A stretch of 58,645 bases of DNA, filler included, from Perkinsus olseni (Eukaryota), in assembly GCA_013115125.1 (NCBI GenBank). It is 6 parts of 6 records of this genome, joined end to end, with 100 filler letters (N's around TTAATTAATTAA, not from the genome) between each part and the next. Parts side by side here need not be neighbours in the genome. Positions count along the whole stretch, not along the records: positions 1 to 9,772 come from JABANN010000906.1; 5 more parts are not named here. One strand, written 5' to 3'. Within the stretch, counting starts at the first letter, position 1. Every line of letters begins with the position of its first letter. The notes beneath the pieces were generated by a model, which saw only the letters and a list, made by a program, of their open reading frames with translations, did not search any database and was not told the origin of the DNA. Position numbers and translations under genes: made by a program. Below are positions 616 through 28,671 of this stretch, in pieces.

Positions 616-2442
616 TCAGGCAGCAGTGACATCATCATCCACGCTGTGACCACCCATGCGAGCCATCTCGTTCCTCAGCTTCTCAGTCTCCGCCAGACTA
701 GGCTCTTCGCACGTTGCTCGGGCCCTAGCGGCGAAGTCCATGTACCACGTCGTGATAGCCAACCGGTGAAGGTCTCCGGTGACTGGAAGTACCTGATCGA
801 CCCACGGTGGAATTTCGTGGCGCGCGGTCAGAAAAGCCTACCTCATGCGGCACCCGATCGCTGAGAAAAACTAGCAGGCGGCCACCACTGGGACAGATGC
901 CCGTCGCGACCTCCGAACCATCCTCCATTGCATGGAACACGCGAAGCGTCTGAGGCCAGAGGATGCGTGATTTACGAAAGGAGTGGTACGAGGTACACCC
1001 CTCCGTGACTGTCCAGTGACCATCCCTCCGGGTTGAGGTAGACCATGACCGTCAAAATCCTCCCATCACCAATCGGATTGTCGATGTGTCGGATATACCG
1101 TGACCCGACACCGTTGCCTCCACGTGCGGCTAACAGAGAATTTCGTGGCGCGCGGTCACCGTCACGGTATGGGAGGACTCACCTGGGTAAATAGCGACCA
1201 TCGAGCTCTGGGCCACCACCGTGTCGACTCCCTCCAGAGCAGCGCATCGACAGTTTCGAGCCAAGCCTTGGACGAGGAGGTCCATACCTGAGGAGCCGGA
1301 AGAAACAGCAGCCCCAGAGAAGCCGTCGTGACCTGCTCTCAGCCACTTGTAGCCGACGGGACAGTCGTCGTCCTGTGGGGACAGCCAACGCACAAAGTCC
1401 CCTCGAGAGCCTTCCTCAATGTACCTAGCATATACCGTCCAGAGGAGGGCTAGAAGCAGGGCCTTCGCTGTGACTTGATGTTCTGGCCTGATCGCCCACC
1501 CCCCATACGACCCCTCCCGAAATCGCCCGTCCCTGAGAGCTCCATCTGAGTTTATCCTCTTCGAACCAGGCTCACCATTGGAGTATCGGTCGAGCCAGCA
1601 GGTCCGCATTTTCTCAACAGCCGTCATGTCGATGTAGCCATCAATGAACGCCCACCCCCGACCGGCCAAGCCTTCCGCTAGAGACGCTGCCTGGCCGGCA
1701 GTCAACGTAGGTGGCTCGCCCCATTCCGAGCTCGCCTCGTATCCTGCCAGAGGAAACTCTCAGAGACCACCACCAGCAGCAGCGACATCACCTGAGTCGT
1801 AGTGTCCACCCATCATAGAAAAGCACATCTCGATCTCACGGGACTTGGCCTTCAACTCACTCTGAGCCGCCGCCACCTAACGGCCAGGGCGGCAGTCTAC
1901 GTCGAGCAGCCGGTCAACACCTCCCGCTCAGCATTCCGCTTTTGTTCGGCGACCTTTTCGACAGCCTCGCTTGCTGTGGAGACATCTTGTAGGATCCTGG
2001 GGGCCGATTCGTCAGTTCCACGGGTCGACGTAGGATACCATGCAGCGGGACCCACCGATTGCGCTCAGCCCCAGCCTCGGCGATTTCCTCACTGATACTC
2101 CGAGTCTTCTCGGCATGAGCCTGAGCCACCAAAGACTCTGCATCGCTCCGCTGCACATCGAAACTCTTTTGGCATTTTTGTACTAGCATGGCCAGGCGAA
2201 GGTTGGCAACCTGTTCGGCCAACGTAGGCTTCTTTCCACCAGCGCCTCGACACTCCACACGATGAGCCTGCAGAGGGTCCTTCGACTCCGTGACGCCTCG
2301 TCGATCTGACCTCCCTCCAATGGCGCAGCTGATGGTCCTTAGAGCAGTACTTAACATCCAAGCATCGGCTGCAAGTGAAGGGATGCGGCCGTTGTTGACT
2401 AGTCGCACCACAGTAGGCACAGGAAAGATAGACAGCGGCCAT
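616..2442 (-). CDS. MYND zinc finger + 2OG-Fe(II) prolyl 4-hydroxylase (EGLN/PHD2-like architecture), multi-exon
   Basis: N-terminal CAYC...CSRC...YCSKDHQLRHW (MYND). Spliced C-terminus RYIRHIDNPIGDGRILTVMVYLNPEGW..GG|TLRVF...RLLVFLSDRVPHE|VLPVTGDLHRLAITTWYMD matches the PHD catalytic motifs (HxD...H triad, 2OG-binding Arg). Stop at 616-618. Confidence 0.85.
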
Positions 2443-2873: not shown

Positions 2874-5369
2874 CTATGTACACTCGTCCAGGAACTTGGC
2901 CAGTTCATCATGGCCGCCCTTCCGGGCAAGGATCGCGGGGGTCTGGCCTCTGACGTCCGCCGTGGCCCGGAGGCGCTTGAAGACATCGAAGGTGAGTAGC
3001 CACTCACAAATATCCTTGTGTCCGCCGTAGGCTGCCTTGTGGAAGGCGGTGTGGCCCTGGTCATTCCCCCTAGCCAGCTCTTCGGGCTCCAGCACCGTCG
3101 AGCACCACTTGACCGTCTCCAGCTGACCCGACAGCGCCGCGAAATGGGTGACTATGCAACCCCACTTGTTGACGTGATGGACATCAGCCCGTCGGGCCAC
3201 CAGGACGTCGCACATGGCCGGGAAGCCGCCCCAACACGCCAGCTGCAACGGAGTGGTACCGTCCTTGGTCTCGCTGTCAACAGGCAAACCGCAGTCGACG
3301 AGTAGCCAATCAATCATACCAACTCGGCCGTTGCGAGCTGCCCAATGGAGAGCATTGCGACCACTCTTGTTGTCACAGTAGAATGGATCTCCACCGACCG
3401 CGAGGAGAGTCCTGCACACTTCCAACTGCCCAGCCCCAGCAGCGTAGTGGAAGGGTGAGGAGCCGAAACGGTCAGTGAGGGAGACGCCCTTCTCTCGGAT
3501 CTCCTCGGGAGTGTACAGGTGGAGCACCGAGCCGTCCTGGCATGCGGACATGAACGGGTCTAGTTTCTTCGATTTCTTCTTGACCCTGTTTTTGACGGCC
3601 ATCGCCGCCGTCGCTGTCTTGGTGGCTGCGAGTTCCTCCACGTAGTCGAAGAACGAGGCGGCACACGCGTGGGCGAAGACATGCTCGACATCAACGACCA
3701 CCCCCAAGGCTTCCGACAGGGTCTCCACCAGGATGACGGCCAGAAGGGAGGTCACGCCCTGACTCGCTAGAGACGCGTCATCGACAACATCGAAGCCCAG
3801 CACCAGATTCACGCATGCTCGTATCCGCTCCCGTGCGCCGCCGTTCGACGCCTTAGACTTTCGAGCCTCGGTGACGGGGTAAGCCGCCAAGGCCTTTCGA
3901 TCCAGCTTGCCGTTGGACGTGACCGGCAGCGCTTGGAGGGCAGTAAACCATGTTGGGACCATGTAGGGCGGCAGAACTTTCCCCAGCTCCTGTCGGAGTC
4001 TAGGGACATCAAGGCAAGACGAGTCACCAGTGATGAAGGCGGCCAGATGACTCTTATGGGGCACCACCGCGCATTGGCATTGGTCATCAAGATGCTGGCT
4101 GAGGGCCTTCTCAACTTCACCGAGTTCAATGCGATACCCTCGAAGCTTCACTTGGGAGTCGTTCAACCTGCCCAGATAAATGTAGTTACCATCGTCGTCA
4201 ACTCGCACTCTGTCACCAGTCGCATACCAACCGTCTCCGGAAAAGCCGTCGAGGGGTCGCGATGGCGCTGCAGTCCTCTGGAAGTAGCCAAGCGCCACGC
4301 CAGCGCCACCGATGAGGAGTTCGCCCGAGTCGCTGATCTCGAATCTCGTCTTCCGAATGGGCCGCCCTATAGGAACAGGGCCATCACCGTCTGGCAATAC
4401 TCGGTGAGTACTCGACCATATTGTGGTTTCAGTGGGGCCGTAGCAGTTCAGGACCATCGGACTGATCTCACAGAGGCTCCTGAGGGTGGCAGGGAAGGGC
4501 TCGCCACCGCAGAGGATCTTCAGGCGAGGGCTGAGCTCCTCGGCCCTCTTCAAGAGACCAGCAGCTATCAGCAACTGCCACATTGTGGGAGTTGCCTGCA
4601 TAACGTCAACTGACTCCTCGATGAGCATTGAGAGTATCTTAGGTCCATTCCGGCAAGTCTTGCTGTCGGCAATGATGCACTCCCTGCCAGTCGAGAGAGG
4701 CAGCATGTACTCCAACACCGAGATGTCGAACTGGAAGGTCGTGACGGCCAGCAGGCGGCCCCAATCAGAACCGAGCTCCTCGGAGAAGTGCTCGAGGACA
4801 TTAATCACATTAGCATGAGACACCACCACCCCCTTGGGCCGACCAGAAGAACCGCTAGTAAACATAATATACGCCGGAGCTGGCAGGCCGTCGCGCTGCA
4901 GAGTCAACTCATCCTCTATGGGCTTCTGGAGGTTCTCCAGCCCAGGAAGATCTTCGACTCCGATGACTCTGCGGGCGGTCGACTTCAGCTCAGCAGCTGC
5001 CTCAGCGGTGGTGACGATGAGGAGGTCGCAGTGGGCCTCGTCAGCCACCTGCCGCGTTCGACCAATCGGTGTGAGCCCAGCGTCCAGCGGGATCATAGTG
5101 CAGCCGAGCTTCCACAGCGCCAAGGCAGTGACTATGAAGGCCGTCCCTCGTTCTAACAGAAGAAGCACTCGCGAGCCTGGCCGCAGACCGCTCTCCCGGG
5201 ATAATGCTGAGGCGCGGGCGTCCACGAGAATCCGAAGTTGATGGTAGGTAAGGACGGTGGAGTTGCATCGCAATGCGATATTTTCAGGATATTTGACCGC
5301 TGTCGCCGCGAAATTCAGCCACAGGTTGTCATAAGGCAAATGAATCATGCATGAAGCTCTGACTGTCAT
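2874..5369 (-). CDS. Intronless NRPS-like protein: adenylation domain - carrier (PCP/ACP) domain - about 6 ankyrin repeats
   Basis: A-domain core motifs FTSGSSGRPKG, FDISV, NCYGPTE, GELLIGGAGVALGY, YATGD, QVKLRGYRIELGEVE, LPPYMVP, NGKLDR. Carrier motif QGVTSLL (Ser codon 3747-3749). Ankyrin repeats such as GRNALHWAARNG, GTTPLQLACWGG, GHTAFHKAAYGG. Start is ATG 5369 or 5348. Confidence 0.9.
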   Translation of the reverse strand: MTVRASCMIHLPYDNLWLNFAATAVKYPENIALRCNSTVLTYHQLRILVDARASALSRESGLRPGSRVLLLLERGTAFIVTALALWKLGCTMIPLDAGLTPIGRTRQVADEAHCDLLIVTTAEAAAELKSTARRVIGVEDLPGLENLQKPIEDELTLQRDGLPAPAYIMFTSGSSGRPKGVVVSHANVINVLEHFSEELGSDWGRLLAVTTFQFDISVLEYMLPLSTGRECIIADSKTCRNGPKILSMLIEESVDVMQATPTMWQLLIAAGLLKRAEELSPRLKILCGGEPFPATLRSLCEISPMVLNCYGPTETTIWSSTHRVLPDGDGPVPIGRPIRKTRFEISDSGELLIGGAGVALGYFQRTAAPSRPLDGFSGDGWYATGDRVRVDDDGNYIYLGRLNDSQVKLRGYRIELGEVEKALSQHLDDQCQCAVVPHKSHLAAFITGDSSCLDVPRLRQELGKVLPPYMVPTWFTALQALPVTSNGKLDRKALAAYPVTEARKSKASNGGARERIRACVNLVLGFDVVDDASLASQGVTSLLAVILVETLSEALGVVVDVEHVFAHACAASFFDYVEELAATKTATAAMAVKNRVKKKSKKLDPFMSACQDGSVLHLYTPEEIREKGVSLTDRFGSSPFHYAAGAGQLEVCRTLLAVGGDPFYCDNKSGRNALHWAARNGRVGMIDWLLVDCGLPVDSETKDGTTPLQLACWGGFPAMCDVLVARRADVHHVNKWGCIVTHFAALSGQLETVKWCSTVLEPEELARGNDQGHTAFHKAAYGGHKDICEWLLTFDVFKRLRATADVRGQTPAILARKGGHDELAKFLDECT

Positions 5370-6622
5370 TTGGTTCGTAGCTCCCCTTGCCAAACTGCCC
5401 CAACGCAACCCTCCCCTGATGGTCGTATCTTAGGTTGAATCGATACGTAGGACTACGCTCAAGGTGGCAGCACTTAGCCGCCACCGTAGACCACCGAACG
5501 AGACAGGAGCAATATCGATACCATGCAAGTACTCCGTCCGACGTCCGGCCACGTCGCAGGTCGACTTAGACGCCTGACAAGCGCTGCATGTACGAGTTAA
5601 TCGCTGATAAACGGCACTCCATGAACGAAGACGCTATTGCTAGTTAGGGAAAGCGAGAGAGACAACACTGCAGTTGTGGGAGCTCGGACGCATTCCGTAA
5701 CAACCGAGACCGATCAGCTTTTTCCTAAAACTGAAATGCTCATTTGCTAGCCTACAAAACTTTTCCCGAAGTGAAACTCAATGGCTCCGACAGATATATT
5801 TTGCGTTAAATCGACCGATGGAGTATTGCGATTTAACCAGCATGAGCGAACTTCCTTCGAGCAGCAGAAACCAATTCGATCGAATTGAACCAGACACCCG
5901 AAGTGGACTTCTTACCTTCATGCTCCTCAATTACACATACCTGACAGCAGTCGAGCAAACACTCCATAACAGAAATTAAGGAAATGCAAGTCCAGACAAG
6001 ATAACAAGCAGCGCGCTAACACTATTGATAAATTGCGCTCAGCAGCCAAGCGGCAACTAAGGTTCGCATCATTTTCGGCTCAGTCATCCAGTCAAAGATG
6101 CATACAACAGTCAAGCAGCGATAGTGGATAAAAGAGGGGTCAACAAAAGAGCATCGAGGCAGAAGGGCAACAGTAAGGATGAATACTATATGACCTCTAC
6201 GGACAATTAGTAGAATCTTGCAATCTTGCGAAAACCTAACGTCATTGGCAACTACAAGCGCAAGCTTTCTTCAGAGCACACCGGCTGTGAGGGTAGTAGC
6301 AGTTGAAATAACAAAATTCTACAGCCACACATGCCAGCTACAGCTGCTTTACTTCAAAGATCGTTTTGTATGAACGTGTCCTAGGTCTGCGAGACGAGAG
6401 CTTTCCGTACACTGGGAGAGCAATCATGCAACAGAAATGTAAGTTCAAGATAATAACAGAATTCGCAGAGAGTCTCCTGTTGAGATGCCGCGTTGTACCT
6501 GGACGGTGAATGAGACGCTCCAATACTTATATTCTAAGCGGAACGAAGTGGAGTCAAGCTAATGGTGAGAAATGAAGCGATAACTACGAAAATCGATAAA
6601 CAATTCAGAGCTTGGATCACAA

Positions 6623-25756: not shown

Positions 25757-27969
25757 TCAGCACAGCGTGGACTTGCCAAACTGTTCGAAGAACTCATCCT
25801 TGACTTCGCCTCGCACCGCCACCAACGGCGGCTCTACCTTCCTCCTAGCCGCCGCTCGGGCGTTCCCATCCTGAAAGCAGCAACAGCATCGACCCTGACG
25901 CCACGACCACGGCTACTACGGCAACTCCCTTCAAAGCGACAGTCTTGTCACGATGCCGCCGAGCCATGTCCCTGACCGCCGCCCGACGCTCCTCCTCCCG
26001 AGCCGAGGCCTCAGCGGCCTCCACTGCCCCCTCTGCTGCAGACTGCTTTCTGGCAGCCTCCGCCTGATGGGCGCCAGCATGGGCTGGTCACACTGAGAGC
26101 GCCGCTCACTTGTCGATCTCGGAAGTCCTTCACCCTTCCCTCCGCGTCCGGCGGCGCCCCACGATAGCCGTCCTTCCTGTACCGCCGCCCTGTCGAGGAT
26201 GAAGATTCGAGTCAGCCCTTCTCGGCAAATCTTGCTCGCCCGAAAGATATGCTCACCTCCGTCCAACTTTTCCGTAGGCGGTTCATTGATGAACCTCCGA
26301 CCATCCGCCATGTACTCGAGCATCGCCTTGCCAGCAGCCTCTTCTGCGTCACGCGCCGCGAAATGTCGTAGAGCAGCCGCTTCTGCCAGCTTGCGATTGG
26401 CCTCCAGAGTCCTACGCAGACATAAATGTCGTGCGCCACGAAATTGCAGCTCCTCACTCTCTGGCCAACCGCCTGGCCCTAGCGGCTATCTCCTCCTTCG
26501 GTCCGGCCAGGCCCCCATACGGAGCCGCGGGCGACGACTGAAGCCCCACCGTGACGACGAGGGCAGGGAGGACGAAGCCACCTACTTCAACCTCTGCCAT
26601 TCTCTCCTTTCGGAGCATCTTCTCGAACATCTGCTGTTCCAGTGCGTCCCTTTGCTGTTTCTGTTGCTCTCGTTGCCGCACCACCTTGCCCTCATCCTCC
26701 CCATCCAGTACTTGCACTGACGACGGACCGTACCTGGAAGACAGCATGTTGAGGGAGACCAGCCCTCGGTGGTGGCCGGTGATGCTGCACACTGCCGACT
26801 ATCTCCCCCAAATTCCCCCGATTCTGACGCCATTCCACCTTTCATGCTCAAATACTTCAACCTACGACGATCGAACCGCGTACGATGTTCTTCAGGTCCA
26901 AAAGGACGACAGGAATCTCAACGAATCTCAGTAGTAAGCCCCAGCCCTGAGCCTTTCTCTCTTGAGCTGAGCGACATTGTCAGGTTCACTGCGAAAGCGA
27001 CCTTCCAGGCGTATAGAAACTCATGACAATCTAATAAGCGCNNNNNNNNNNNNNNNNNNNNNNNNNNNNNNNNNNNNNNNNNNNNNNNNNNNNNNNNNNN
27101 NNNNNNNNNNNNNNNNNNNNNNNNNNNNNNNNNNNNNNGCTGAGCGACATTGTCAGGTTCACTGCGAAAGCGACCTTCCAGGCGTATAGAAACTCATGAC
27201 AATCTAATAAGCGCATATCCGAGCTTCCCGCGCGCCACGAAATTCAGAGCCTTCCTCAATATGGCCTCCCTCTTACTCGACTACTGAGGTGTCCTCCCCT
27301 CCCGCCTCCCTTTCCAGCCGCTCACTAACCTGCTTGGCGAGGGCAGCCCTCAACTCAGCCTGCGTCGCGCGCCGCGAATTGTGACGCTGGAAAGAAGCAC
27401 GCTTCCGACCAAACACCCAGGAAACAATGTGCAACCACCAAGACGGGCCATTCCTAAGTTTCGACAGCTGCTACGACAAATTCTGACTCTGTCCTCTTGC
27501 ACCCCAAGAACGAGAGGCTAAGAGCCACCTCCGTGGTTCACGCCAAAACTGTCGTTCTCTCCGTCGGGCTGCAGCAGGCACACCTCCATCTCCCTTTCAG
27601 CCAGCTCCTCATGAGCCTCCATAACCCCCCTTTCGACTGCCCTCTCCTTCTCACGATCAGCATAGAGGCGCGCCAGCTTCTCCAGGACCTTCGAGAATGG
27701 CCATCCACAGCCGAAGACAAACACCAACTCACTTGCGCGTCCAAGGCCTGCTTGTCTACGCCGATCGTGCGGATCTTGGCGTCGAAGAAACGAGGTCGCC
27801 TGAGGTTGACTCTCGCCACATCCAAAACCAAAGATTCCCTGTCATACCGGGAGGCTTCCCCTTCCCTCATCTGTGCCACCCTAGCTGCTATCCTCTGATC
27901 GATCCCCACCACCTCCGGCCGGGCAGTTGTACGCGGTAACTTCTCCGGCAGGCGACGAGAGTCCGTCAT
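25757..27969 (-). CDS. RIB43A: RIB43A-like axonemal ribbon protein (RIBC family), multi-exon, spans a scaffold gap
   Basis: RRPRFFDAKIRTIGVDKQALDAQV, YGPSSVQVLDGED followed by coiled coil, and C-terminal DEFFEQFGKS all fit RIB43A motifs. Confidence 0.75.
26966..27214. other. Scaffold gap with duplicated ~76-bp flanks (assembly overlap artefact)
   Basis: 26966-27041 is repeated exactly at 27139-27214 on either side of the N run. Confidence 0.85.
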
Positions 27970-28302: not shown

Positions 28303-28671
28303 ACAACACAGCCTGATTTGCCTTCCAAGTGTGATATCCGTATATCCAGTGCTGATGACGCCGTAGCGAAGACGGATGATGATAGATGAAAAAAAGATGA
28401 TACCAATGAAAAAACTTAGACCAGAGACGAGTTTTCCAGCACGGAGTACTGTCTCCGGTGATAGTACTACTACTGCCACAGTTGTCGCATTTCGTGGCGC
28501 GCGGTCAGACAGCCGGCATCATCATCAGCAGCAGCCCTACCCGAGCACGATACGTGGAAGATGATGCGCCTGCTGAGCCCTCCTCTACAAAAGACTTATG
28601 CGCCGCGATAATGGGAATAGGAGTTAGGAAAGGTGTGGTATGGCGATGATGAAAATGTCGAGCCAGAGCTG

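Follow-up and report, generated by a model that had tools for sequence, protein, structure and literature searches.

A locus on the minus strand of a stretch of 58,645 nucleotides (nt) of DNA from the protist Perkinsus olseni (assembly GCA_013115125.1; six parts joined end to end with filler, referred to as the window) is one real spliced gene that unites a MYND finger with a PHD2-type prolyl hydroxylase. Its coding sequence (CDS), located in the part of the window derived from JABANN010000906.1, runs from 2442 to 616 and consists of 12 exons separated by 11 introns, with 1,281 nt encoding 426 amino acids in a frame that is open throughout. All 11 introns have GT-AG borders and are 43 to 63 nt long. 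The preliminary description of the locus, made from the sequence alone, had placed the MYND finger and a prolyl 4-hydroxylase (P4H) on a single gene, and this proposal is supported by the open frame over 12 exons, by contigs with spliced joints, and by a cDNA-derived sequence in print. The limits that it gave, 616 and 2442, are exactly the stop and start codons of the CDS, and the motifs that it quoted (RHIDNPIGDGRILTVMVYLN, PHEVLP, and RLAITTWY) are all found in the spliced product. The protist origin of the gene was also confirmed, the best protein matches all being from Perkinsus (P. chesapeaki, P. olseni, and P. marinus). The novelty that it implied for the MYND plus PHD2 layout in a protist had to be given up, because the gene has been in print since 2008, under exactly that description, and has figured in a phylogeny of the PHD and PhyA enzymes since 2019.

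The same gene has already been cloned and published from P. olseni, as judged from the title of the report by Leite, Brito, and Cancela (Protist, 2008) on a hypoxia-inducible factor (HIF) prolyl 4-hydroxylase of this species, which appears as reference B51 of PMC4007648, and is not a new discovery. Table S2 of the survey by Florimond et al. (mBio, 2019; PMC6437050) lists it as Po, Perkinsus olseni, EU007818.1, "PHD2-like," in group A2, beside choanoflagellate and animal PHDs, with an asterisk denoting experimental evidence, and Fig. S2 of the survey prints the Po N terminus under "ZF MYND subdomain." The Po rows of this figure, which span MAAVYLSC to DDDVTAA and the stop, agree with our gene model at all 11 junctions. 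The comparison covered residues 1 to 52, the linker, the stretches across the junctions, and the C terminus to the stop, and within these the rows and the model are identical, with the exception of an X, standing for N or T, at a position that is N in the window, of one Thr fewer in GYIDM(T)AVEK as printed, and of a substitution in the active site that is considered below. Seven of 10 short strings of the model were found in the published alignment; RLAITTWY and LLVFLSDR were missed owing to alignment dashes and RHIDNPIGDGR owing to dashes and to a real R for H difference. Our literature search found no other paper on a Perkinsus MYND-PHD enzyme and none connecting Perkinsus with Skp1 or Gnt1.

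A stop-to-stop listing of open reading frames (ORFs), together with the reverse complement, showed that the region from 2442 to 616 is made up of successive short open pieces whose frame keeps changing, and the gene model was built with P. chesapeaki protein P0001 as the guide (Table 1). This protein, named Egl nine 1, is a single model of 432 amino acids combining MYND, PF13640, and PF13661, and it is 66% identical to the window product over 429 columns. Evidence for splicing was provided by contigs of four runs (X1, X2, X3, and X5) placed on positions 500 to 2900, those of X2 and X3 covering small parts of this region only. Eight of the 11 introns (introns 1 to 5, 8, 9, and 11) are spliced in contigs of X1 and X5. 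A single X5 contig (record 12) joins 1997-1918, 1873-1791, and 1742-1578, thereby leading from the linker into the catalytic domain. No joint was found among the contigs for introns 6 and 7; contigs break off close to the exon boundaries at 1578 and 1424. Public predictions fragment the locus. P0017 is a MYND-only prediction of 147 amino acids that keeps intron 2 as coding and stops inside intron 4. The 63 nt of intron 2 are likewise translated in the P. olseni partial protein P0002. P0014, a C-terminal P4H-only prediction of 219 amino acids, shows 99.5% identity to the model across 204 residues. Partial P. olseni proteins show up to 93% identity to the model on single exons, and a P. marinus fragment of the same gene was found. 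Our analysis provides a corrected and complete gene model with splicing support for a locus that is fragmented in public predictions.

Pfam analysis of the open pieces produced a match at E ≤ 1 for four of eight, including zf-MYND (8.5e-9) on the exon 1 reading frame from the ATG at 2442 and 2OG-FeII_Oxy_3, seen in two different exon frames (1.2e-4 and 0.12). The latter scores are below the gathering threshold because introns cut the domain; for P0014, the same family was matched at 8.4e-18. A DurN match in the last exon frame (E = 0.083) was dismissed as chance level, and no Gnt1 domain was found in the 426-residue product by Pfam or in the gene model. The active site of the window protein consists of H303 and D305 (RHIDNP), H367 (PHEV), and R378 (RLAITTWY), i.e., an intact HxD...H triad and the Arg that binds 2-oxoglutarate (2OG). 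In an alignment of 36 homologs, R235, D237, H306, D308, H372, R383, and W389 (P0001 numbering) are invariant, and the window protein has the same residues.

A sequence search of the PDB with P0001 matched 37 distinct sequences, 33 of which are EGLN1, with a best E value of 5e-26 over residues 155 to 402 (248 residues) for human EGLN1 chains, well above chance level. The further matches comprised EGLN2 (5e-22), a Trichoplax PHD (3e-21), Pseudomonas PPHD (6e-14), and 6t8m (3e-9), which we take to be a protist PhyA entry. The alignment with EGLN1 pairs RGDFVRW with RGDKITW, RHIDNP with RHVDNP, and PHEV with PHEV and extends to R-x-AIT-x-WY and to the ARARA tail. The AlphaFold model of P0001 (predicted local distance difference test [pLDDT], 85.9; predicted template modeling score [pTM], 0.72) consists of a small N-terminal finger, a long helix, and a double-stranded beta-helix domain with a C-terminal helix. 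Foldseek comparison of the catalytic part of this model gave template modeling (TM) scores of 0.86 for PPHD, the top match, 0.86 for Trichoplax PHD (root mean square deviation, 1.7), and 0.80 to 0.85 for PHD2. Membership of the PHD/EGLN type is supported by the iron triad with its basic 2OG residue, by sequence kinship, and by fold, and the architecture of PHD2/EGLN1 by the presence of an N-terminal MYND finger on the same polypeptide. In sequence, EGLN1 is a closer relative of the catalytic domain than either PhyA or the bacterial PPHD. The view that it is of the PHD/EGLN type and not of the PhyA type, already put forward in the preliminary description, is upheld by the E values (5e-26 for EGLN1 versus 3e-9 for 6t8m) and by the assignment to group A2 (PMC6437050).

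The MYND finger reads CAYCG...CSRC...YCSKDHQLRHWREAHRVEC, with a His as the sixth zinc ligand (CSKDH). Its final H-x3-C is formed only once the 43-nt intron 1 has been removed, which provides independent support for this intron. Homologs were collected by an exhaustive HMMER search with P0001 as the query, which returned 2,505 matches at E ≤ 0.001, the best 150 of which were used. Among these 150, a zinc-ligand pattern identified 47 MYND-bearing proteins from outside Perkinsus, and a His occupies the sixth ligand position in 46 of them, although only seven are named, all animal. Against the 47 proteins, the Perkinsus finger scored 10 to 33 bits, and against solved MYNDs it did not exceed 18.8 bits (reached with ZMYND10), in a comparison that is unbalanced. 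Searching the PDB with P0017 identified only nuclear magnetic resonance entries of ZMYND10 (E = 0.019 and 0.046), in addition to chance-level rows of ATP synthase subunit b. A MYND-only query (residues 1 to 60 of P0001) against a collection of 5.8 billion proteins returned itself as the sole candidate and is uninformative on the kinship of the finger. The Atlas neighbors of the MYND part alone, which serve as a lead only, are generic MYND clusters, none with PF13640. Between finger and catalytic domain, the model of P0001 displays one long helix (residues 60 to 144), which is common to Perkinsus and the dinoflagellate protein P0015, since the latter aligns with P0001 from residue 55 (residues 55 to 423).

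Several points weigh against reading the locus as a gene for an active MYND-PHD enzyme. The runs X1, X2, X3, and X5 are RNA by guess only. Intron 10 is unspliced in all of the contigs that cross it (X5 record 11 and X1 records 3 and 4), and its retention introduces an in-frame TAA, which would end the protein after HGG, before the distal iron-binding His. Neighboring introns are spliced in the same contig that keeps intron 10, and a variant allele present in both X1 and X5 (974 A>C, plus strand) alters the TAA; the unspliced form may correspond to regulated retention or to pre-mRNA. The published Po row reads RYIRRIDNP, with an Arg at the first iron-binding His, whereas the window (1089-1091) and P. 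chesapeaki have a His. This Arg may be a sequencing error, a typographical error, or an allele of the published clone. Finally, the PDB search, the structure model, and the fold comparison were performed with the P. chesapeaki ortholog P0001 rather than with the spliced protein of the window.

Among the best 150 of the 2,505 HMMER matches, the sequences that follow the Perkinsus fragments are from dinoflagellates or unnamed sources (1e-52 to 1e-33), and animal EGLN1 appears near 1e-25. Pfam analysis of 63 of the 150 revealed 23 MYND plus P4H proteins, besides the MYND-only P0017. Thirty proteins were looked up by name. The seven named MYND plus P4H proteins are from a turtle, a sea urchin, two nematodes, Nematostella, Mytilus, and a jellyfish; seven more of the MYND-bearing proteins carry no source name. 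The named relatives lacking MYND are from dinoflagellates (sp. MGD, Polykrikos, and Durusdinium) and oomycetes (Aphanomyces and Pythium). Two tandem P4H domains are present in P0018 (Polykrikos), P0020 (Durusdinium), and the unnamed P0023, P0025, P0028, and P0048. In the trees described below, the two domains occupy separate positions for P0018, P0020, and P0025 and group together for P0023.

A quick tree was built from 142 domain rows after dropping 22 proteins covering fewer than 170 profile positions, leaving out P0014, and adding four tandem second domains. It separated a clade of 64 animal-like rows, 43 of which are MYND positive by pattern, from 78 other rows with a Shimodaira-Hasegawa-like approximate likelihood ratio test (SH-aLRT) value of 98. 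In the 78 rows, MYND was present in the two Perkinsus rows only. The 69 rows of a more careful tree were selected once the quick tree was known, and neither tree includes TgPHYb. In the careful tree, 26 animal-like rows, including Mytilus, formed one branch (100/99) with Perkinsus outside. Perkinsus grouped with P0015 of Dinoflagellata sp. MGD (100/86), then with P0026 (99/81) and P0019 (99/89), on a backbone that is weak (65/87). Uniting Perkinsus with the animal-like rows lowers the log likelihood by 22.97 units, and this placement is not rejected by the approximately unbiased (AU) test (P = 0.105), the group having been named after the tree was seen. On these maximum-likelihood (ML) trees, the Perkinsus enzyme appears to lie outside the metazoan PHD clade. 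The P0024 cluster (member P0168), PHD2-like with a coiled-coil linker and deposited as "2OG-Fe(II) oxygenase [bacterium]," weakly adjoins the animal-like clade in the careful tree (65/87) and is probably of eukaryotic origin, placed in a metagenome bin.

Group B4 PHD-like proteins of ciliates (Stentor, Sc, and Tetrahymena, Tt) also begin with a MYND finger, with a Cys at the sixth ligand, and are devoid of the catalytic residues (Fig. S2 in PMC6437050), implying that MYND-P4H fusions arose more than once and are not confined to animals and Perkinsus. For Perkinsus and animals, an ancient fusion followed by losses and a convergent fusion are near even. A fuller scenario, which we regard as possible but doubtful, is that both descend from one fusion predating animals and HIF, later lost or remodeled in dinoflagellates, oomycetes, and choanoflagellates, with the MYND finger ancestrally recruiting a non-HIF client, for example via cochaperones, and HIF being a late addition. 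The result of the AU test, the common His ligand, and the higher MYND bit scores against PHD-type fingers than against solved MYNDs are in its favor, whereas the absence of MYND from the nearest catalytic relatives and the generic Atlas neighbors of the finger alone count against it.

Perkinsus lives inside clam and oyster hemocytes, and the whole gene could in principle be an animal EGLN1, MYND finger attached, captured from the molluscan host. This would account for the fact that all seven named MYND plus P4H matches (best 150 of 2,505) are from animals, including a mussel, that the His ligand of Perkinsus recurs in 46 of the 47 MYND-bearing matches (the seven named ones all being animal), and that the language-model neighbors of the full-length protein are clusters of HIF-P4Hs from animals. 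Host transfer is nonetheless very unlikely, since the branch containing Mytilus leaves out Perkinsus, which groups instead with a dinoflagellate protein. Dinoflagellate or unnamed matches are also far closer than animal EGLN1 among the 150 (1e-52 to 1e-33 versus about 1e-25), the helical linker aligns with that of P0015, and the gene, present in three Perkinsus species, carries 11 short introns in the Perkinsus style. Still less credible is that the locus holds two genes, one for a short MYND protein and one for a P4H on its own, as the P0017 and P0014 predictions in public databases would have it. The stop of P0017 sits in intron 4, which is spliced out in record 12 of X5, the frame is open over 12 exons, and both the single P. 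chesapeaki model and the published sequence run from end to end.

The two other alternatives concern the identity of the enzyme. A Perkinsus Skp1 prolyl hydroxylase acting like PhyA is unlikely, although somewhat less so than a host capture. Of Perkinsus genes, Table S2 has one in A2 (the present one) and one in B2 but none in PhyA group A1, and animal PHDs were placed as emerging within the PhyA-containing clade A (PMC6437050). A gene missing from a table of 68 sequences may still exist in the genome, and the genome was not searched for PhyA; the Skp1 proposal is kept alive only by these two circumstances, i.e., the published table and the lack of such a search. The survey files the gene as A2 "PHD2-like," not "phyA" (PMC6437050). 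P0001 matches EGLN1 far better than 6t8m, and no fusion to Gnt1 is present. The weak similarity, the A2 assignment, and the lack of a Gnt1 domain together suggest that the gene does not belong to the PhyA group. The second alveolate PHD, PHYb, affects translation elongation in Toxoplasma, and PHYb-like genes are found in Perkinsus, chromerids, and dinoflagellates (PMC6437050). The gene product is an alveolate protein whose catalytic domain is preceded by a region of some size, as might be expected of this type, but a different Perkinsus gene (P. marinus XP_002773980-82) has been assigned to the PHYb-like group B2, and the upstream region of the gene studied here appears in the published alignment as MYND and helix, not as the D1/D2 subdomains (PMC6437050). 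A PHYb-type enzyme is accordingly a most improbable reading.

Among known systems, the MYND-PHD enzyme of Perkinsus shares its layout with animal PHD2/EGLN1/EGL-9, including Trichoplax PHD. Common to both are the order of an N-terminal MYND finger and a PHD-type double-stranded beta-helix, the HxD...H triad, Arg383, the RGD-x-(I/V)-x-W loop, the C-terminal WY-x-D-x-x-x-RA motif, the His as sixth MYND ligand, and the fold (TM, 0.80 to 0.86 for the P0001 model). Unlike the animal enzymes, Perkinsus falls outside the animal clade in the ML trees, with a catalytic domain of about 30% identity and a linker that is a long helix, as in the dinoflagellate homologs. HMMER (best 150 of 2,505 matches) and the trees both place closest the catalytic domains of PHD2-like proteins from dinoflagellates and oomycetes (for example, P0015, P0018, P0020, and P0045 from Aphanomyces), in which no MYND was detected by Pfam or by the zinc-ligand pattern and several of which have two tandem P4H domains. 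Pseudomonas PPHD (PDB 4iw3), whose substrate is EF-Tu, has the same fold (TM, 0.86) but is bacterial, has a single domain, and is more distant in sequence (6e-14). PhyA, the Skp1 prolyl 4-hydroxylase of Dictyostelium and Toxoplasma, is likewise a cytoplasmic 2OG prolyl hydroxylase of protists from the same superfamily and is used as an O2 sensor. It differs by its assignment to group A1 versus A2, by the lack of MYND, and by its frequent fusion to Gnt1 (PMC6437050).

Upstream of the gene, an ORF of 851 amino acids on the minus strand (2874-5429) combines an adenylation-like region at the N terminus with ankyrin repeats at the C terminus. One X1 contig is continuous over 2183-2871, comprising exon 2, intron 1, the start codon, and the entire upstream spacer, to within 3 nt of the stop at 2874; it may be DNA or unprocessed read-through RNA. 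Introns 11 and 9 contain an identical 20-nt string on the minus strand. The same string recurs with one or two mismatches at 27225-27244 (plus strand) and 28488-28507 (minus strand), giving four matches in the window versus 0.01 expected. One of the two further copies looks intronic, and the other lies just upstream of an ATG. The string could be a regulatory or an intron-borne repeat; its reverse complement has a TTTCGTGGCGCGC core, presumably reminiscent of E2F-type sites.

Table 1. Coordinates of the MYND-PHD gene and of its parts in the window
Feature	Position	Strand	Support or remark
Whole CDS, MYND and PHD2-like prolyl 4-hydroxylase	616..2442	-	ATG 2442-2440, TGA 618-616; collinear with P0001 and published Po rows
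MYND finger, residues 8-50, split by intron 1 (2268-2310)	2250..2421	-	P0017 MYND 5.1e-10, profile positions 1-39 of 39
Introns 1-6	2268-2310, 2121-2183, 1997-2055, 1877-1920, 1744-1791, 1533-1575	-	
Introns 7-11	1425-1474, 1288-1332, 1130-1182, 950-998, 793-841	-	
Exon 1, residues 1-44, bulk of MYND finger	2311..2442	-	Pfam zf-MYND 8.5e-9; junction 2310/2268 spliced in X5
Exon 2, end of MYND finger and start of helical linker	2184..2267	-	Contigs and model
Intron 2, 63 nt, in frame	2121..2183	-	Joint 2119->2183 in X1 and X5; published row LAMLAHAEK
Exon 3, linker	2056..2120	-	Contigs and model
Exon 4, linker	1921..1996	-	Contigs and model
Intron 4, 44 nt, contains the in-frame stop terminating P0017	1877..1920	-	Removed in X5 record 12
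Exon 5, end of linker	1792..1876	-	Contigs and model
Exon 6, start of catalytic domain	1576..1743	-	P0001 homology, contigs, and model
Exon 7, 58 nt, GTGDFGRGRMGGGRSGQNIK, frame differs from that of the long ORF 1130-1759	1475..1532	-	P0001 homology and published Po row
Exon 8, RGDFVRW, counterpart of PHD2 RGDKITW	1333..1424	-	Model and alignments
Exon 9	1183..1287	-	Contigs and model
Exon 10, HxD iron ligands, RHIDNP at 1074-1091	999..1129	-	Pfam and model
Intron 10, 49 nt	950..998	-	Kept in contigs; absent from published Po row (HGGTLRVF)
Exon 11, ends with PHE of PHEV, distal iron-binding His	842..949	-	Pfam and model
Exon 12, RLAITTWY (2OG-binding Arg), C-terminal helix, stop codon	616..792	-	Model and published row

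Taken as a whole, the locus is very probably the P. olseni-type gene of the described HIF prolyl 4-hydroxylase (PHD2-like, EU007818.1), predicted to encode a cytosolic Fe(II)/2OG dioxygenase that hydroxylates a prolyl residue of a protein substrate with O2. To our knowledge, Perkinsus has no known HIF, no HIF-alpha or VHL partner of its enzyme has been described, and the substrate is probably not a HIF-alpha. The enzyme would use O2 to hydroxylate a prolyl residue of a non-HIF protein and, given a rate that we infer to be O2 dependent, would act as an oxygen sensor. The cDNA and the gene were reportedly both cloned in the 2008 work, and the transcript is said to respond to hypoxia. By analogy with the PHD2 MYND and HSP90 cochaperones, the MYND finger would recruit a partner or the substrate via a short proline-containing motif, and the interdomain helix of about 85 residues would act in oligomerization or scaffolding. 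The finding adds no new kind of system. Finding a PHD2-like enzyme where no HIF is known raises the question of its substrate. Perkinsus infects clams and oysters, in whose hypoxic tissue it lives, and is of commercial importance as a parasite, so that an oxygen sensor in this organism would be of some applied interest.

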